64,000 nt of DNA, from the NCBI GenBank assembly GCA_965218375.1, contig OZ244618.1, forward strand, positions 1,404,950 through 1,468,949, read 5' to 3'. The DNA comes from Alphaproteobacteria bacterium (lineage in GTDB: Bacteria; Pseudomonadota; Alphaproteobacteria; G965218375). Below are positions 3,435 to 14,383 of the stretch, in pieces; the stretch's first letter is position 1; every line of letters begins with the position of its first letter. The notes below the pieces were generated by a model that was not told where the DNA came from, did not search any database, and saw only the letters and a program-made list of their open reading frames with translations. A program made the translations under genes and the position numbers.

Positions 3435-4730
3435 TTAATAACGATAAAGCTCGGGCTTAAATGGTCCAGAGGGGTCGACGTTAATATATTGCGACTGTTC
3501 TTGTGTTAATGTCGTCAGTTTTGCCCCTATTTTATCTAGGTGAAGAAATGCAACTTTTTCATCTAACTGTTTAGGTAAGAGGTAAACTTGATTCTCATAG
3601 GAATGACAGTTTTGCCATAATTCAATTTGGGCAAGAACTTGATTCGTAAAGCTGGCAGACATTACAAAGCTTGGGTGTCCAGTTGCGCATCCCAAGTTAA
3701 CTAAGCGTCCCTTGGCTAAGACCAGCAGGCGCTTATTGTCTGGGAAAACCACTTCATCAACTTCGGGCTTAACTTCATCCCATTGATAGTTTTGTAAGGC
3801 ATCTATTTGAATTTCACTATCAAAGTGACCAATATTACACACAATGGCGCGGTCTTTCATAAGGCGCATGTGGTCAAGGGTGATGATATCAATATTACCC
3901 GTAGCCGTGACAAAAATATTTCCTTGGGGTGCTGCATCCTCCATGGTGACAACTTCAAAGCCTTCCATACAGGCTTGCAGGGCGCAAATGGGATCAACTT
4001 CAGTAACTAACACGCGGCATCCTGCAGAGCGGAGGGATTCTGCGGATCCTTTACCGACATCACCATAGCCCGCAACAACGGCAACCTTGCCCGCCAACAT
4101 GACATCTGTTGCCCGTCGGATACCATCTACCAGAGATTCGCGACACCCATACTTGTTGTCAAATTTTGACTTGGTGACAGAGTCATTAACATTAATTGCG
4201 GGGACTTTAAGGGTGGCATCTCGCACCATGGCATTTAAACGCAAGATTCCACTTGTGGTCTCTTCCGAGAGGCCTCTAACCTCTTTTAAGTGCTCAGGGT
4301 ACTTCTTATGCATGAGATCGGTTAAATCGCCCCCATCATCTAGGATCAAGTTTGGACGCCATCCATTTGGTCCGTCAATTGTTTGCTCTATACACCACCA
4401 GAAGTCTTCTTCACTCAAGCCTTTCCAAGCAAAGACAGGAATGTTTTGGGTTGCCATGGCTGCAGCTGCATGGTCTTGGGTTGAGTAAATATTACAGCTA
4501 GACCATCGCACTTCAGCACCTAATGCAATGAGAGTGTCAATCAGGACAGCAGTTTGAATTGTCATATGAAGACAGCCTGCAATACGCGCCCCCTTTAAAG
4601 GTTGTGAGGAGCCAAATTCTTCACGAAGCGCTATGAGCCCAGGCATTTCAGTTTCCGCAATTTTGATTTCTTTATGTCCCCAGTCTGCCAGGGAGATGTC
4701 ATGTACTTTAAAATCAGTAAATTCAACCAT
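3435..4730 (-). CDS. ahcY: adenosylhomocysteinase (S-adenosyl-L-homocysteine hydrolase)
   Basis: 431 aa with strong global SAHH similarity and an NAD-binding GYGDVGKG motif. Confidence 0.95.
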
Positions 4731-4830: not shown

Positions 4831-5130
4831 TTATTCACTCTCGCCAAAACGACTATCAATAAGTTCACCGATCTCATCAAGGACTTCTGTGGCGTCTTCC
4901 CCTTCTGCTTCCACAAGAATACGGGTATTTTGAGATGCAACGAGCATGAGTAGACTCATTATATTGCGTCCATCAGCATGGTTTCCATTGTGAATAATTT
5001 CCACTTTGGATGACTTAGTTTTTACTAAACGAACCAAGTGGGCAGCAGGACGCGCGTGCAGCCCTTTCTTGTTCGTGATCATAAAGTATCGACTCTCTTT
5101 TTTATAATTTGAATTAGAGTTTAGGGTCAT
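4831..5130 (-). CDS. ptsH: phosphocarrier protein HPr/NPr of the PTS
   Basis: NKKGLHARPAA active-site His motif. The track ORF is 145 aa; the start was trimmed to the ATG at 5130. An ATG at 5082 is an alternative (HPr proteins are about 85-100 aa). Confidence 0.7.
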   Translation of the reverse strand: MTLNSNSNYKKESRYFMITNKKGLHARPAAHLVRLVKTKSSKVEIIHNGNHADGRNIMSLLMLVASQNTRILVEAEGEDATEVLDEIGELIDSRFGESE

Positions 5131-5188
5131 AGGGCTCTTGGTGAAGGGGTAAAGCAGAAGCGTGGTGTTATCCATACAAAGGAATGGG

Positions 5189-5593
5189 TCATTTTTTTTG
5201 TTTAAGAAGGCTAGAGGCCACGGCAATATAGCGCCGACCAGAGTCTTGGGCTGCAATAACAGCATCATTCAATGTTAAATTTTCACGTTCCGTGGCGAGT
5301 TTTATCAGCATGGGAAGGTTCATGCCCGCAATGACTTCTATGTGAACATCTTCCATGATTGAAATTGCTAAATTGCTTGGAGTCCCGCCAAACATATCCG
5401 TGAGGATAATAACGCCACTTCCTACATTTACAGTTTCAACCGCGCTTTTTATTTCATTGCGACACTGCGCTATATTGTCATCAGGGCCGATGCATATAGT
5501 AGCAATGTTTTTTTGGGAACCGACAACATGCTCCATAGCGGCTAGAAATTCATTCGCCAAACGGCCATGAGTAACCAGAACAAGACCTATCAT
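5189..5593 (-). CDS. manX: PTS EIIA component, mannose/fructose family (ManX-like)
   Basis: 134 aa. N-terminal IGLVLVTHG with a phosphorylatable His, typical of the EIIA(Man) fold. The manX-ptsH-ahcY arrangement is conserved in Alphaproteobacteria. Confidence 0.75.
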   Translation of the reverse strand: MIGLVLVTHGRLANEFLAAMEHVVGSQKNIATICIGPDDNIAQCRNEIKSAVETVNVGSGVIILTDMFGGTPSNLAISIMEDVHIEVIAGMNLPMLIKLATERENLTLNDAVIAAQDSGRRYIAVASSLLKQKK

Positions 5594-5741
5594 CTACTTA
5601 TTCCTTAAAGAATGACTAATAAAATATTTTATAATTTTTTTTTAAAATTCTCAAGGCTTAGTTCCTAAGATTACATCATTTATCAAGGGGATAAGGTGGC
5701 AGAGCTGATCACAAAAATGAGCTGCGGGGGTCACCCCAAAA

Positions 5742-7013
5742 TTAAGAGAGGTTTTCAAGAATCTTGACCATCTTTTTTTCTGAGAAGGGAAATGTAGTGC
5801 CATTGTGGGCACTTATGACTAAATCTCTAGAAAGGTTAGCAATGCGAACTTGGATTCTAATGGCGGTTTTCATGCTAATATTAGCCTTCCAGCAGAGGGA
5901 TATAATCGTATCGGGTCTGCGTGAGCGAATAGCATCTTGTATTTTGTTAATATCAATATTAGTACGGTTGGCGAGAATTTTTGTCACCGTTGCGCGATCT
6001 TCATTATCGATCGCAAGACTGAGGTGAGCATCGTCTGAAGATAACTGGACACCGCTTAGGGGTTGAAAGGGGACAGTGTCGTCAGTTGTTTTGTGGGTCT
6101 CTTCACTTAATCTTTTTTCCATAAGTATCGAGAGATCTTTGATGGTTTCGGCATCAAGGTCTTCGCGCTCTAATAAAATATTAAACAGGGCGCTGGTAAT
6201 AAATTGTGAAATTCGGTGCACCAGGTAAACAGGAATCTCTTTACGCATGACCAGAGGTTTGTGCCACGCCTCAATATGCTCAGCCATATCAACAATACAG
6301 TTGAGGGTCTCCTCACGAATTTGCGCCCCTGAATTTTCCAGCAATGCCGTGATACCATTAACATTTTTTGTCATTACGATTGCATCTGCAACAGAAGGCT
6401 GGACAGAGCTTCTTTCCGCAATAAACTTAAACATCTCATTATCTGTGGGCACATTGGATATGATGGAGATCAAGTCTTCTTGGGTTAAGAGAGGGGAGTG
6501 CTGTAATATGGGGCCTGAAACCAAGATTTCAGGATCATTAGATAAAATATCAACAATTTCTTTGGGGACGTAAGATAAAGAGCTCAATTCTTCAGAGAGT
6601 ATGGCGCGCACTCGGGGGAGGTGGTCGTCTACCAGCACCTTTAAAATTTGCAGGAAAAGTTTCCCGAATTGTTCTTGGTCACGTTCTTTGAGGGTCGGGA
6701 TTATGGATGATATTTTCTTTATAATACAAATGCGTGTTTCTTCATCAACATCACAGGCCAATAGCATATCCGCTTGCAGGGGCGTCGATTGGTTTTGGGC
6801 GACAGCTTGACGGACTTCTTGGTTTCTATCTTCAGTGAGGAAATAGAGAATCTCAGGCTTTGTATCCAAATTCTCTGCCAGCTTTAGTTTTTTAACAGTG
6901 TCATCACTTTGGATAATTTGCTTGCTTTTCTCATAAGAATAAGAGGTCTTCCAAAAGTATGAAGATAAATTATTAACGCCCTCTTTCACATAATCAAGTA
7001 CACTATTTAACAT
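5742..7013 (-). CDS. hypothetical protein, predicted alpha-helical repeat architecture; possibly the alphaproteobacterial DUF2336-type family (uncertain)
   Basis: 423 aa with no catalytic motif or P-loop (so not HprK). The ATG directly abuts the TAA of the upstream GGDEF gene (TAAATG), indicating translational coupling. Confidence 0.5.
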   Translation of the reverse strand: MLNSVLDYVKEGVNNLSSYFWKTSYSYEKSKQIIQSDDTVKKLKLAENLDTKPEILYFLTEDRNQEVRQAVAQNQSTPLQADMLLACDVDEETRICIIKKISSIIPTLKERDQEQFGKLFLQILKVLVDDHLPRVRAILSEELSSLSYVPKEIVDILSNDPEILVSGPILQHSPLLTQEDLISIISNVPTDNEMFKFIAERSSVQPSVADAIVMTKNVNGITALLENSGAQIREETLNCIVDMAEHIEAWHKPLVMRKEIPVYLVHRISQFITSALFNILLEREDLDAETIKDLSILMEKRLSEETHKTTDDTVPFQPLSGVQLSSDDAHLSLAIDNEDRATVTKILANRTNIDINKIQDAIRSRRPDTIISLCWKANISMKTAIRIQVRIANLSRDLVISAHNGTTFPFSEKKMVKILENLS

Positions 7014-8750
7014 TTATTTCTCTTCCGTTGTATTGGAATCAATGTTGCTTAAATAACGAATTTTATATTGAGATTTACCAGAATTCTTTGCAATATACAT
7101 AATCCGATCTGCTTTGGCGAGAAGTTCCTCAACATCGTCAATCTGATCGTCTGGCGTACAAATGATCATGCCGACTGAAGGGGTGACCGGTTGCGTATAA
7201 TCCTTTGTCGTTTCTTTTAGTTTCTCAAAGTCTTTAAATAACCTGTCAGCCCAATGAGACGCACCTGCTTCGTCAACCTCTTCCAACCAAATAGCAAATT
7301 CATCACCACCAATACGGGCTGTTGTATCACCGGCTCTACGGTTATCTTCGAGGATGTTTGCAACGTCCCGTAAAATCTGATCCCCAACATTGTGACCAAG
7401 AATATCATTAATGGGTTTAAAATTATCTAAATCTAAGAATACCAGCACACCAGTACGCTTAAATCGTTTCAGGTGGGCAATGCGTGAGTTAAGGACTTCC
7501 ATAAAAGCGCGACGATTCTTGAGATCGGTAATAACATCCCTGCGTGAGAGTATTTCCAGTTCTTCCCGCTCTTTGATTTGGTGGAAAGCAATGCCCAGGT
7601 GGGCAGAAATACTTGTGAGTAAGTCACGGTCATAGGTTGACCAGTCTGGTTGGCAAGCGGTGCGCGCCATAATAATAACACCGTTGATCACCTTATGAAA
7701 GTTGGTTGAATGTGCAATAAATTGGTAGTCGTCCTTTTGGGTTGTGTAGGGTACACCGTCTTCTGGAAGGGTTTCAATTATATTTAAAATATCGAAGATA
7801 TGAGGATTCAGGTTCGTTTTCGTGATCGGGTACTGCATGGAGAGTTCCAGCTTATTTTTTGTGAGACTGCGCGTAAAGACCCAACATATGTGCGCGCTTA
7901 AGGCCTTTGTTGGTAAGGTCGTAGCAATCTGGAGCAGTTTGTTTGAATCAAGTTCTTTATGGAGGGCATCGACAATGCGTTGTAATAATTTCTCACGTTC
8001 TTGCTGGCGTTCAAGTTCGAGTTTTTGTTCATGTTCTTCTGTAAGGTCACGGCACACGCCTCGAATGGCGATCACCTGGTTACCATTTATGATCGGTTTA
8101 GAGGAAATACGACAGAAAAACCGCTTATTGTTACTGACGCGGAGCCACATTTCATGATCTTCTATGGGATAATGGGAGTCAAATGGAAAAACTTCTGAAT
8201 TTTTCTGGTCCTCAAGAATGCGCGAACACTGACCCGTAAGCGTTGATGAAAAAACACCTAACGCGCCATTATTACTGACATAGGTGAAAACACCATTTTC
8301 ATCTGTTTCCCAAGCAAAATCAGAGCTACACAGCACAAGATCCCTAAAGAGTTTCCGTGAAGAAATCAGGGCATTAACAATATTTCGGTCAGCGGTGATA
8401 TCGTCAGCGAGGATTAGAGCAACGCGCTCTTTAGAGTTTAAGGTAAGGGGAGAAACAATGACTTGATACATAAATGTGTCATCAGAAGATTGAACCATCA
8501 CCCGCTTGTTATCAGAAATAGAGTCCTCAATAGTATCGATAATCATTTCGATGATGGTCTCGTTTTTCTGCACATTTAAGATGTTAAGTAATTTTTTTGC
8601 TTCATTATTATGGTAGAGAATCACGCCTTGGCCAGAGACAATGAACACACACCCAGGGTAGGAACTTATCAAGCTTTCACTATCAATATAAAACTCAGAT
8701 GTTTGTTTAGCTTTGTCATTTGTTTTTTGGGAGGTGCGTAAACTAAACAT
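7014..8750 (-). CDS. diguanylate cyclase with N-terminal PAS/GAF-like sensor domains
   Basis: The C-terminal GGDEF domain has an intact GGDEF motif and an RxxD I-site (RAGD-ttari-GGDEF) and the DLDNFKPINDILGH motif. The N-terminal 400 aa contain PAS-like segments. Confidence 0.85.
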   Translation of the reverse strand: MFSLRTSQKTNDKAKQTSEFYIDSESLISSYPGCVFIVSGQGVILYHNNEAKKLLNILNVQKNETIIEMIIDTIEDSISDNKRVMVQSSDDTFMYQVIVSPLTLNSKERVALILADDITADRNIVNALISSRKLFRDLVLCSSDFAWETDENGVFTYVSNNGALGVFSSTLTGQCSRILEDQKNSEVFPFDSHYPIEDHEMWLRVSNNKRFFCRISSKPIINGNQVIAIRGVCRDLTEEHEQKLELERQQEREKLLQRIVDALHKELDSNKLLQIATTLPTKALSAHICWVFTRSLTKNKLELSMQYPITKTNLNPHIFDILNIIETLPEDGVPYTTQKDDYQFIAHSTNFHKVINGVIIMARTACQPDWSTYDRDLLTSISAHLGIAFHQIKEREELEILSRRDVITDLKNRRAFMEVLNSRIAHLKRFKRTGVLVFLDLDNFKPINDILGHNVGDQILRDVANILEDNRRAGDTTARIGGDEFAIWLEEVDEAGASHWADRLFKDFEKLKETTKDYTQPVTPSVGMIICTPDDQIDDVEELLAKADRIMYIAKNSGKSQYKIRYLSNIDSNTTEEK

Positions 8751-9214
8751 AAATTAATCCAAATTATAATTAAAAAAATAAATATATTAACAACACTTAA
8801 TTAATGTAGAAGAAATAGACACTTTTCATGCCCAAAATGGTAATATAGAATTAATTTCTTTGTCGTGATAACAGGCAGGGCACAAGTCATAATCTCTAGA
8901 TTAAAAAAAACTATTAAGTAACGGTTTAATGTACTTTGAGTAGTGTTTTTGGATACTGCAATCTTGATGCTACCTTTACGATTAAAGAAAATTTGTCATA
9001 TATGAATGGCCAGTTATATTGTATATAGCCATTGCATGCTTGATTTTCACTACTTATAAAAGGTTATAAAAATAAACTTAGTATATAATTTCTTTTTATA
9101 TTTTAATCGTTATCGTGATGAATGAAAAGTTTTTTTGTTAACGTGGACGACTAAAGGTTGATAATATACTCGTCATAGATAATAAATCTAAAGTAGATTT
9201 TTGGAGTATTTTGG

Positions 9215-9263
9215 ATTAACCGAGGGTTGAATTTATAATTAAATTTACTCAACCTTAAGGTTA
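9215..9263 (+). promoter_or_regulatory. structured leader element (nested inverted repeats) immediately upstream of dapD
   Basis: TTAACC-gag-GGTTGA...TCAACC-ttaa-GGTTAA forms two stacked 6-bp stems around an 18-nt AT loop and ends about 35 nt before the dapD ATG. Confidence 0.3.
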
Positions 9264-9297
9264 AAAGAACATAACTTCTTATAGAAAGTGGGAAAAA

Positions 9298-10197
9298 ATG
9301 AACAGTCATAATTCATTAAGTGGTGGGTCTTCAAATTCTAAAGCGTTTGATTCTCATCTGGTGGATAACATTGAAGAGGCTTGGAATGTGCGTGAGACAA
9401 TCTCACCTTCTACTCAGGGTGCATACCGAGAGGCTGTCTTAACCGCCCTTGATGATCTTGATCAAGGAAAAATTAGGGTTGCCGAGCAAACTCCCGATGG
9501 GTGGCACATAAACCAATGGGTGAAAAAAGCGATTCTTTTATCTTTTAGATTGAATGATATGGTCCCTATCTCTGGAGGGCCAAGTGGGCCAGAAGGCATG
9601 GCCCAATGGTGGGACAAGGTGCCGAGTAAGTTTGCGAGTTGGGACAGTGCCCGTTTTAGAGAGGCGGGGTTTCGTGCAGTTCCAGGAGCGATTGTAAGGA
9701 GATCTGCGTTTATTGCCCCCGGGGTGGTCTTGATGCCATCTTTTGTCAACCTTGGGGCCTATGTGGGTAAAGGCACGATGATAGATACTTGGGCAACTGT
9801 GGGCTCGTGTGCTCAGATTGGTAACAATGTTCATATCTCAGGGGGCGTCGGTATCGGAGGCGTTCTTGAACCTCTCCAAGCAGACCCAGTTATCATTGAA
9901 GATGATTGTTTTATTGGTGCTCGTTCTGAGGTTGCAGAGGGCGTTATTGTTGAAAAAGGTTCCGTCTTGTCCATGGGGGTATATATTGGAGCCTCAACAA
10001 AAATTATTGATCGCGCCACGGGTGCTGTTCATATTGGACGTGTGCCTGCCTATTCAGTTGTGGTTCCAGGGACCCTTCCAGGAAAGCCTTTGCCAGATGG
10101 TTCCCCAGGACCTGGTTTGTACTGTGGGGTCATTGTGAAGCAAGTTGATGCTCAAACGCTGTCGAAGACATCGGTTAATGACTTGCTCCGTGATTAG
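9298..10197 (+). CDS. dapD: 2,3,4,5-tetrahydropyridine-2,6-dicarboxylate N-succinyltransferase
   Basis: 299 aa with hexapeptide-repeat left-handed beta-helix segments (IGxxVxIxGGVGIGG). The alphaproteobacterial DapD N-terminal domain is present and dapE follows. Confidence 0.9.
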
Positions 10198-10238
10198 GTA
10201 ATGTGTTTCTATATTTTTATTTTTCAACAGGATGATTT

Positions 10239-11390
10239 TTGAAAATGTCAAAGGATTCTATTGTACTAGCGCAAGAGTTAATTAAGTGTCCTAGCGTGAC
10301 GCCTGAGGACAATGGTGCTCTTGTTTACCTTCAGAAGGTCTTGTCCTCTTTAGGTTTTGAGTGCCATTCCTTGAGATTCTCTGAAGAGGGAACTGCAAGC
10401 GTTGATAATTTGTATGCGCGTTATGGGCGCAAAGGGCGTGTCTTTGGCTATGCGGGGCATACGGATGTGGTGCCAACAGGTGTCAATTGGCGCTATCCTC
10501 CTTTTAGTGCAACCATTGCGGATGGTAAGCTGTGGGGACGAGGTTCTGTTGACATGAAGGGGTCAATTGCGGCATTTGTTGCCGCGATCCAGCGTTTCCT
10601 AGATACTTACGGTTCCATATTTGATGAGTCCATTGCTCTGGTGATTACTGGAGATGAAGAAGGTGTGGCGGTGAATGGTACCGTCAAGATTCTTGACTGG
10701 ATGACACAAAATAATGAGAAATTAGATGTATGTATTGTCGGAGAGCCCACTAATTCCGAGTTTTTAGGGGACACCATCAAAGCTGGACGTCGGGGAAGTA
10801 TGGATTGCGTGTTGAGAGTTAAAGGGATTCAGGGGCATGCGGCATATCCAGAATTAGCAGATAATCCCATTTCACGACTTATTGGTCTGCTAAATAAGTT
10901 GGTCTCGTTAAAATTAGATGAAGGAACAGATTTATTTCAGCCAAGTACGTTGACAGTTACGAATATCCATGTGGGAAATACGGCAACCAACGTGATTCCA
11001 GAATGGGCAAATGCGTCATTTAATATTCGTTTCAATGACCTCCATAATTTTGACAGTTTAAAAGCACTTCTCCATAAAACCCTAGATGATACGCAGCTGG
11101 GGAACTATGATCTGACCCTGAGGAGTAATAGTGAAGCGTTTGTCACCACGGCTCCCGCGTTTCTGAAGGTGGTCTCGTCAGCAGTGCAGGAGGTGACAAA
11201 TTATGTGCCGAATTTAACTACAGGCGGCGGAACAAGTGATGCGCGGTTTATTAAGAACATGTGTCCGGTGGTCGAGTTTGGGCTCGTAAATAAAAGCATG
11301 CACAAGGTGGATGAATTTTCACCCCTAGAGGATATTCGTCAACTTACGGATGTATATTTTGTGATGCTAAAAAAATATTTCGACTCATAA
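10239..11390 (+). CDS. dapE: succinyl-diaminopimelate desuccinylase
   Basis: 383 aa M20 peptidase with AGHTDVVP, GSVDMKG and ITGDEEG metal-binding motifs. Confidence 0.9.
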   Translation: MKMSKDSIVLAQELIKCPSVTPEDNGALVYLQKVLSSLGFECHSLRFSEEGTASVDNLYARYGRKGRVFGYAGHTDVVPTGVNWRYPPFSATIADGKLWGRGSVDMKGSIAAFVAAIQRFLDTYGSIFDESIALVITGDEEGVAVNGTVKILDWMTQNNEKLDVCIVGEPTNSEFLGDTIKAGRRGSMDCVLRVKGIQGHAAYPELADNPISRLIGLLNKLVSLKLDEGTDLFQPSTLTVTNIHVGNTATNVIPEWANASFNIRFNDLHNFDSLKALLHKTLDDTQLGNYDLTLRSNSEAFVTTAPAFLKVVSSAVQEVTNYVPNLTTGGGTSDARFIKNMCPVVEFGLVNKSMHKVDEFSPLEDIRQLTDVYFVMLKKYFDS

Positions 11391-13147: not shown

Positions 13148-14383
13148 ATGAAACCATCGCTAACGGAAAAAAACGATATCGGTTTGTGTGGATCAGAGGA
13201 GAGAAGATTTCTAGACTGGATCAGTAGCGTAAATCGAAGTGTAGTGGATACAGTCATTATATTAGTTCGCATTTCTCAACTCCATAATATTAACCAACAA
13301 CCCTATCACCTTAAAATCATAACGTATATTTTTCAGCTAATTATAGGTAAAAACTCGGTCCTTTTTTATCGTTTTTACAACGACGATATTATCGTTATTG
13401 GTCAAAAAGAACAAATACCAGCCTTAAGGGATGCGTGTAAAAATATTGTTAATTTATTTACTCATGACCCCTTGTTTGTCAAAGAAGACGGGAAAGCGAA
13501 AAAAGACTTTATTTCATGGTACGAGAGTCATGATTACGTTGAGTTAAAGAAAACAGCTGAACAACGTATTAATCAGGCCTATGCCCACCGTGATGCGACT
13601 TTGAAAAAAATGTCGAAAACCTTTGAAGGATTGCCGAGCGGCTTGACGAAAAAGGATTTAACCCCCTCATGCTTGGTTGATTTGATTCAAAGTATCCGTA
13701 ATATGGATCTGTCTCGGTTTTTACAGAAACAAGTAACCTATAGTGTCATTGGTGATGGTCTGCCTATTAGTCTGTCCAGTGAATATTTTATTTCTATTTA
13801 TGATTTAGGCAATACCCTGTTTCCAGATGTAAATCTGACTTCAGATAAATGGCTCTTTCAGCACCTGACGGAGTATTTAGATAAGTATATTCTGACCATG
13901 GTGCCAAACTTGAAGGAAACAGAAAAAAAGCCTATTTCAATTAATATCAACGTTGAGACGTTATTGTCCGATGAGTTTTTAGAGTTTAATCGCAGGCTTA
14001 GTCCCGAACGTAAAAAGAGAATTATTTTAGAATTACAGCCCCATGATGTTTTAGGCAATACAGATACATTCATGTTTGCGCGCAATTTTTGTCATCATGC
14101 AGGGTTTAAGGTGTGTCTTGATGGCTTAAATCATATGACGTTTCCTTTGTTAGATCGACTCTTTTTGCGGACGGATATGGTCAAGGTGGTGTGGTCTGCG
14201 TACCATTGGTCAATGATGGACGAGCAACAGCGGGAGGGGCTGGAAGCAGCTGTGAAGCGGACGGGGGCATCACGGATTATCCTGTGCCGTTGCGACTCAG
14301 AGGAGGCGGTGTCTTTTGGCCAAAAATTGGGGATTCAGTTTTTCCAAGGACATTTTTTCAAACATATGACATTAGAGGTTTAG
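13148..14383 (+). CDS. hypothetical protein with a catalytically degenerate EAL-like C-terminal domain
   Basis: The C-terminal 150 aa align to EAL landmarks (LELQP for ExxE; CRCDSEEAVSFGQKLGIQFFQGHFF for the EGVE...QGY tail). DDFGTG is replaced by LDGLNHM and the K-x-D motif is lost. Confidence 0.5.
   Translation: MKPSLTEKNDIGLCGSEERRFLDWISSVNRSVVDTVIILVRISQLHNINQQPYHLKIITYIFQLIIGKNSVLFYRFYNDDIIVIGQKEQIPALRDACKNIVNLFTHDPLFVKEDGKAKKDFISWYESHDYVELKKTAEQRINQAYAHRDATLKKMSKTFEGLPSGLTKKDLTPSCLVDLIQSIRNMDLSRFLQKQVTYSVIGDGLPISLSSEYFISIYDLGNTLFPDVNLTSDKWLFQHLTEYLDKYILTMVPNLKETEKKPISININVETLLSDEFLEFNRRLSPERKKRIILELQPHDVLGNTDTFMFARNFCHHAGFKVCLDGLNHMTFPLLDRLFLRTDMVKVVWSAYHWSMMDEQQREGLEAAVKRTGASRIILCRCDSEEAVSFGQKLGIQFFQGHFFKHMTLEV

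Follow-up and report, generated by a model that had tools for sequence, protein, structure and literature searches.

Several GGDEF enzymes are encoded beside a non-enzymatic accessory protein that presumably regulates them, among them YfiN/DgcN with YfiR-YfiB, SiaD with SiaC, and DgcY with HhmR, the last pair being described in PMC12421958. Here we analysed a pair of the same general make-up in a 64,000-nt stretch of an alphaproteobacterial chromosome (contig OZ244618.1, positions 1,404,950 to 1,468,949; hereafter the window), where the gene of a diguanylate cyclase adjoins that of a 423-aa protein of the Pfam family DUF2336. This partner is predicted to be a HEAT/ARM-like alpha-solenoid and, to our knowledge, a partner of that kind is unrelated to YfiR, SiaC or HhmR. 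The locus consists of five co-oriented genes on the minus strand, from 8750 to 3435, namely those of the cyclase and the DUF2336 protein followed by manX, encoding a mannose-type enzyme IIA (EIIA-Man) of the phosphotransferase system (PTS), ptsH, encoding HPr, and ahcY (Table 1).

A full-text literature search for "DUF2336" returned only unrelated papers, and the sole studied member of the family that we found is SpbR (CC2323) of Caulobacter crescentus, which inhibits centromere translocation and for which a dependence on PopZ is reported. SpbR binds RcdA 1:1, as a monomer complex, and is a substrate of ClpXP (bioRxiv 10.1101/2020.06.12.148478). It is restricted to Alphaproteobacteria (PMC1182365) and was lost together with 24 regulators linked to cyclic di-GMP (c-di-GMP) in non-dimorphic Caulobacterales, having no known c-di-GMP link itself (PMC12700997). 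The window protein shares with SpbR the DUF2336 domain and a central stretch of homology. SpbR equivalogs, however, are ~370 aa long and lie in another context with no cyclase nearby, whereas the subfamily of the window protein is 410–430 aa long, with additional N-terminal HEAT-like repeats, and is coupled to a cyclase. The downstream genes correspond to a further described system, the canonical nitrogen-PTS (PTS-Ntr) cluster chvI-chvG-hprK-(rapZ)-manX-ptsH-(ptsI)-ahcY. The window keeps manX, ptsH and ahcY in the same order and orientation, but is without chvI, chvG, hprK and rapZ, its HPr is without the serine targeted by HprK, and a DUF2336 gene stands upstream of manX instead.

By gene order and spacing, the cyclase and DUF2336 genes are one conserved operon, ancient and kept across Rhodospirillales-like Alphaproteobacteria. 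A genome scan with one genome per species and an alignment of 31 DUF2336 homologues as query recovered 79 loci, from genomes of Azospirillum, Nitrospirillum, Ferrovibrio, Dongia, Kordiimonas, Thalassospiraceae, Kiloniellaceae and Stellaceae as well as from metagenome-assembled genomes (MAGs). One locus was cut by a contig end and could not be determined; tblastn with the window proteins showed that in 75 of the other 78 the DUF2336 gene is immediately preceded by a co-oriented cyclase homologue, with alignments to the window cyclase over most of the protein length at 25–37% identity. The same pair recurs in the Pfam-annotated contexts of independent homologues. At the window junction (GAG AAA TAA ATG TTA) the DUF2336 start codon abuts the cyclase stop codon with zero spacing; among relatives a distance of -4 nt (ATGA overlap) is commonest, the remainder lying mostly between -8 and +15 nt, and this spacing is compatible with translational coupling. 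Pairwise distances of the two proteins are correlated (r = 0.76), and the correlation remains when the distances of DapD plus DapE, taken as a proxy for the species signal, are held constant (partial r = 0.53, permutation p = 0.001), as compared with a partial r of 0.01 for the control, cyclase versus DapD given DapE.

That this DUF2336 subfamily is nearly always co-encoded with the cyclase, and apparently translationally coupled to it, suggests that the cyclase may work as a two-protein complex. Our preferred reading, to which we give a probability of about 0.55, is that the DUF2336 solenoid is a scaffold or regulatory partner of the cyclase. The two proteins would be synthesised at similar levels and bind each other, and within this complex the solenoid would direct the cyclase to a specific location or partner, or control its dimerisation and thereby its activity. 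Cyclase output would then be set by the PAS/GAF input and the solenoid partner together.

In most of the 79 loci dapD and dapE lie divergently upstream of the cyclase gene, often with a HAD hydrolase gene and truA, and the dapD genes of related loci are 65–75% identical to that of the window (tblastn). The window layout matches, with dapD (9298..10197) divergent from the cyclase gene and dapE beyond dapD. With the whole region syntenic and dapD-dapE-truA likewise conserved, the pair could in principle be nothing but inherited gene order without a functional link. Against this, the downstream flank varies and the pair stays intact: in annotated contexts it is usually followed by a convergent argB-engB-yidC-yidD(-rnpA) row, and overall by the argB cluster, transposases, a short-chain dehydrogenase/reductase gene, ahcY or PTS genes. 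Stop/start overlaps of 4 nt are also maintained across families, duplicated DUF2336 copies remain beside the cyclase gene, and the partial co-evolution of the pair is 0.53 versus ~0 for cyclase and DapD. Mere inherited order seems to us highly improbable.

Two variations of the pair were observed among the relatives (locus numbers are ours). In about a dozen loci the cyclase gene is immediately preceded by a conserved gene for an EAL phosphodiesterase of ~560 aa, giving an EAL-GGDEF-DUF2336 unit (L002:4841-6526, and homologous positions in L014, L020, L037, L075, L077, L070, L030, L026, L006 and L046), and some of these loci (L002, L020, L037) carry a short form of the cyclase (412–449 aa). 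A second DUF2336 paralogue is attached to the cyclase gene in ~10 loci, either in the order DUF2336-cyclase-DUF2336 (L010, L012, L013, L018, L066) or in the order cyclase-DUF2336-DUF2336 (L015, L022, L039, L070).

The cyclase matches the GGDEF domain with 134.4 bits in Pfam (PF00990, cut-off 23.8) and 134.7 bits in TIGR00254 (cut-off 37.4). Pfam places PAS_9 at residues 148–238 and a second, weaker PAS domain N-terminally, and a permissive Pfam scan gives a faint GAF signal at residues 354–388. The motif RAGD-TTARI-GGDEF contains an intact active site and, five residues upstream of it, an intact RxxD I-site, and no transmembrane-like segment was detected in the protein (maximum KD19 = 1.53); it is predicted to be a soluble, sensor-regulated c-di-GMP synthase that is inhibited by its product via the RxxD I-site. 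Of 41 family members, 40 have PAS, all 41 have GGDEF and 7–18, depending on the model, have GAF. As to motifs, 70 of 75 orthologues retain GGDEF and 65 of 70 retain RxxD, and the PAS-core consensus CSSDFAWETD...GARGVCRDVTE is largely conserved across orthologues, with several nearly invariant positions. In a few orthologues the GGDEF motif is degenerate (VGDEF, HDALF, GPDAF), and the DUF2336 partner is still present. Every match to a named cyclase equivalog in NCBIfam falls far short of the cut-off, as with the domain-level matches to DgcN (127 bits vs cut-off 325) and SiaD (124 vs 290).

The 423-aa protein matches Pfam DUF2336 (PF10098) over residues 165–393, against a gathering cut-off of 34.6 bits. 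Its sole match in NCBIfam is SpbR (NF052659), with 111.6 bits against an equivalog cut-off of 400 and a central alignment of residues 86–296 to model positions 10–215 (E=4.5e-32); other members of the cyclase-coupled subfamily score 146–166 bits against this model. An Azospirillum plasmid protein of ~370 aa (P0394) scores 504.6 bits and is a true equivalog; its gene comes after mla genes and has no cyclase gene in its vicinity, so that Azospirillum carries both DUF2336 types, the SpbR equivalog and the cyclase-coupled one. These scores make the 423-aa protein a paralogue, not an equivalog, of Caulobacter SpbR and a member of the cyclase-coupled subfamily. The C-termini of this subfamily have no conserved degron-like ending. 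Sequence divergence is considerable, as the nearest relative had 38% identity in the first homology search and the best match in the species-level genome scan with the DUF2336 alignment had 40%.

The SpbR equivalog of A. lipoferum 4B follows an mlaE-mlaF-mlaD-lipoprotein-hypothetical row on plasmid AZO_p5 (L084:5857-8315), where its gene and that of a PAS sensor histidine kinase share 4 nt. The A. thermophilum equivalog (L085) stands in the same mla row, without the kinase gene. With the overlap present in A. lipoferum only, a role of DUF2336 as a general partner of PAS sensor proteins was not established.

Profile comparison and predicted structure agree that the 423-aa protein is a HEAT/ARM-like alpha-solenoid. 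Searched against the PDB, the family profile hits HEAT repeats in the A subunit of protein phosphatase 2A (PP2A) with E=6e-7 and LRV repeats with 2e-3. The all-helical AlphaFold2 model comprises 25 helices and is disordered at the N-terminus and in a single loop spanning residues 309–325 (mean predicted local distance difference test score, pLDDT, 87.5; predicted template modelling score, pTM, 0.62). Top Foldseek matches of the model are the PP2A A subunit, importin-alpha and designed ARM proteins, with weak values (E ~1e-3) that are typical for solenoids. The resemblance to the PP2A A subunit (PR65) concerns the N-terminal half, by profile and by fold (Foldseek TM 0.3–0.4), and is at the level of the repeat only (~14% identity); the C-terminal half, which consists of the DUF2336 core and a helical bundle, has no solved relative. 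This likeness supports the role of a scaffold that holds an enzyme, and a protein-contact scaffold or regulator is also suggested by the paralogue SpbR, which likewise acts via protein contacts.

Conserved residues allow another role to be considered, in which the DUF2336 protein would serve as receptor or effector for c-di-GMP and relay the signal of the neighbouring cyclase to a downstream target. Pairs of cyclase and effector genes are a known theme, the cyclase-DUF2336 pair is strongly conserved, and the polar residues that are invariant in the family (R201, N227, Q231, R233, E234, E235, W250, H251, R257) could line a ligand site. However, a Pfam scan of the 423-aa protein at E <= 10 returned DUF2336, HEAT, LRV and chance matches only, so that neither an enzymatic domain nor a domain known to bind c-di-GMP (PilZ, MshEN, degenerate GGDEF/EAL) was detected, the fold is that of a generic protein-binding solenoid, and even the cyclases with degenerate motifs keep their partner. 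The loss of SpbR alongside c-di-GMP genes in Caulobacterales would fit a receptor, but the same study lists SpbR as not c-di-GMP-associated (PMC12700997). We consider a receptor function unlikely.

Several points weigh against a scaffold or regulatory partner as well. Three of the 78 loci (L024, L058, L069) have a DUF2336 gene of this type without a cyclase gene and with unrelated neighbours. Linkage and the joint transfer of adjacent genes confound the mirror-tree correlation, which is therefore no more than supportive, and with a score far under the SpbR equivalog cut-off the biology of SpbR may not transfer to the 423-aa protein. Evidence of the Rosetta-stone type was dropped: the sole fusion, a single open reading frame (ORF) of 616–664 aa with a GGDEF domain and a full DUF2336 (L056:863-2857, P0270), lies on a MAG contig (VGEJ01000267.1) with a frameshift in the N-terminal region of the cyclase, and an indel error is as likely an explanation.

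The initial annotation had read a GGDEF cyclase with PAS/GAF domains and intact GGDEF and RxxD motifs, a zero-spaced TAAATG junction, and an all-helical neighbour, possibly of DUF2336 type; motif and Pfam matches, the junction itself, and the 124-bit match together with the AlphaFold2 model agree with it. Its suggestion that the then unassigned protein works with the cyclase is now strongly backed by comparative genomics, through adjacency in 75/78 loci, overlaps and co-variation.

The PTS genes downstream have a history of their own. The manX product has the phosphorylatable His9 in VTHG and is 67–77% identical to members of canonical clusters; its two closest relatives are those of L090 (77%) and L088 (75%), and the window AhcY is 79% identical to that of L088. 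Canonical order is exemplified by L091 (chvI-chvG-hprK-rapZ-manX-ptsH-ahcY), L175 (chvI-chvG-hprK-manX-ptsH-ahcY) and L089:3232-10922, where rpoN-hpf-ptsN-hprK-rapZ-manX-ptsH-ptsI-ahcY stand in one row. A metagenome scan added 80 further manX loci, and those with sufficiently long flanks show this order. The gene hprK is present in each of the 52 related loci whose upstream flank extends far enough to reveal it, and ahcY follows ptsH or ptsI in most related loci with an adequate downstream flank. About half of the alphaproteobacterial loci have rapZ between hprK and manX.

When ChvI, ChvG, RapZ, HprK, PtsN, enzyme I and RpoN proteins from related loci were used as tblastn probes, none had a match in the 64-kb window (all E > 0.1), and the Walker motif of HprK (G.SG.GKS) occurs there solely in an FtsK-like ORF. 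The window HPr keeps His15 (GLHARPA), but the position of Ser46 is taken by Asn (GRNIMS vs AKSIMG in PDB 3le1). This position is Ser in 73 of 75 homologues, that is, in all 52 with hprK upstream and in all 21 without an hprK match upstream, whose flanks are mostly short; the two others, L088 and L090, both lack hprK and both have Ala. Loss of HprK-dependent control of HPr in this lineage, with HprK disappearing together with its target serine, thus looks real on present sequence comparisons. In another locus (L113) chvG is apparently followed directly by rapZ, without hprK, and HPr still has the serine.

These results agree with the initial annotation as to the canonical order, to which rapZ and ptsI are to be added as frequent extra members, as to the co-oriented manX, ptsH and ahcY without HprK, ChvG or ChvI upstream, for which tblastn was negative throughout the 64 kb, and as to an HPr/EIIA-Man pair without HprK being unusual, given hprK and the serine in 52/52 flanked loci. 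The further claim that the cyclase-DUF2336 pair had replaced ChvG/HprK did not hold: the pair has its own conserved site beside dapD-dapE, and two blocks meet in the window. From the comparative gene order, the 148-nt gap downstream of the DUF2336 gene is a synteny breakpoint, at which a truA/dapE-dapD/cyclase-DUF2336 block meets manX-ptsH-ahcY.

The join is not confined to the window, as at least one other organism has it by the same kind of comparison. L090, a 6.9-kb contig from Logan run SRR26493827 (G+C content (GC) 51%), carries the C-terminal part of the cyclase gene, a DUF2336 gene (407 aa), rapZ, manX and ptsH, with gaps after the DUF2336 gene of 37, 24 and 10 nt; the window differs in that rapZ is absent and ahcY is kept. 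The L090 DUF2336 protein is the best homologue of the window protein (42% identity); its identity to proteins of other Rhodospirillales is slightly higher (46%), the window protein being on a long branch. A lake MAG with 68% GC (L032:8235-12709) has the order cyclase-DUF2336-ahcY, without manX and ptsH and with no dapD upstream. It was rejected as the same event; the ahcY there belongs to another type (63% identity, with a longer alignment), which together with the 68% GC points to an independent juxtaposition.

The co-orientation of the genes allows yet another reading, in which cyclase, DUF2336 protein, EIIA-Man and HPr are one unit and c-di-GMP took over the ChvG/HprK input to the PTS-Ntr carriers. 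A terminator-like hairpin was not found in the 148-nt gap between the DUF2336 gene and manX, the L090 row cyclase-DUF2336-rapZ-manX-ptsH has operon-like gaps, and HprK and its serine target are gone in exactly these genomes. Yet none of the 79 pair loci has manX or ptsH downstream by tblastn, their usual neighbours being the convergent argB row, and among the 80 metagenomic manX loci there is none with a DUF2336 gene upstream. Moreover, L088 (L088:3456-9814, chvI-chvG-rapZ-manX-ptsH) lost hprK and Ser46 while chvI, chvG and rapZ remained upstream of manX, with no cyclase gene adjoining, and the window gap contains a promoter-like site (TTGAGA-17-TAAAAT at 5654..5626, 10/12 matches). A single regulatory unit is therefore very doubtful.

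We favour two blocks joined by rearrangement. The manX-ptsH-ahcY genes would be the remnant, namely the downstream half, of a chvI-chvG-hprK-(rapZ)-manX-ptsH-ahcY cluster, which a rearrangement, probably aided by genome reduction, would have joined to the cyclase operon; rapZ would have been lost from the junction after the join. A RapZ remnant was not found by tblastn in the 148-nt gap. Genome reduction would explain the loss of rapZ, and the small, low-GC chromosome fits this (1,999,363 bp in one contig, 42% GC vs 51–68% in relatives).

The most far-reaching proposal would combine these elements, with DUF2336 as an obligatory subunit of an unrecognised, widespread alphaproteobacterial c-di-GMP module, either a new type of receptor or a spatial or activity gate. 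This module would supply the SpbR family with the c-di-GMP link it lacks and, in the HprK-less lineage of the window and L090, would be co-transcribed with and wired to HPr and EIIA-Man. As a whole we judge it quite unlikely.

Each gene of the locus is individually ordinary. What is new is a large DUF2336 subfamily as the near-obligate companion of one specific cyclase and, in addition, a PTS lineage without HprK and Ser46 whose remnant is joined to the cyclase-DUF2336 module. Counted as clusters at 50% identity, the DUF2336 profile has 17,965 matches (1,790 at E <= 1e-30), and for a family of ~18,000 clusters that is hardly studied the partnership with a cyclase is a testable functional lead; Azospirillum is genetically tractable. 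Lineages without HprK and Ser46 offer a natural experiment on PTS-Ntr regulation without its HprK branch. For genome scans the locus is a caution, since an apparent replacement of a gene set can be two conserved blocks joined by rearrangement. The pair may also explain the co-loss of SpbR with c-di-GMP regulators in Caulobacterales (PMC12700997).

Table 1. Features of the cyclase-DUF2336-PTS locus and its divergent neighbours, in window coordinates.
Feature	Position	Strand	Basis
Predicted soluble PAS-PAS-GAF-GGDEF diguanylate cyclase, 578 aa	7014..8750	-	Pfam GGDEF E=4e-39, PAS_9, PAS
DUF2336 protein, 423 aa, predicted HEAT/ARM-like alpha-solenoid	5742..7013	-	Pfam DUF2336 124 bits; AlphaFold2; Foldseek
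Intergenic gap, 148 nt, synteny breakpoint	5594..5741	-	Promoter-like site; rapZ at the same position in L090
manX, EIIA-Man type PTS protein, 134 aa	5189..5593	-	Pfam EIIA-man E=1e-30
ptsH, HPr/NPr, 83 aa, His15 kept, Ser46 -> Asn	4831..5082	-	Pfam PTS-HPr; alignment to PDB 3le1
ahcY, S-adenosylhomocysteine hydrolase	3435..4730	-	TIGR00936 623 bits
AT-rich divergent promoter region, ~32% GC	8751..9297	.	Composition profile, promoter-like sites
dapD and dapE, conserved divergent neighbours of the pair	9298..11390	+	tblastn in related loci, Pfam-annotated contexts

The spacer between the cyclase gene and dapD measures 547 nt and has several promoter-like sites on either strand. Rfam gave no family at gathering score anywhere in the 64-kb window, intergenic regions included, and thus no tRNA, rRNA or riboswitch. 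On the plus strand, 4.4 kb from the cyclase gene, a gene at 13148-14383 encodes a 411-aa protein with a partial, borderline EAL domain (31.8 bits vs cut-off 31.3) and ELQ in place of EAL. No homologue of it was seen in the related loci, and it may be a degenerate c-di-GMP-related protein.

The ORF listed for HPr (5268..4831, 145 aa) shares 80 nt with the 3' end of manX, and its N-terminal segment of 62 residues has no match. Translation most likely begins at the ATG at 5082, which would give a normal 83-aa protein, and the HPr gene call in the ENA copy of the locus agrees with this start. In that copy (ERZ25073827 contig_33, L001:12284-13583) ahcY is split into four short ORFs, while the window ahcY is intact; the ENA assembly of the locus probably carries indel errors.

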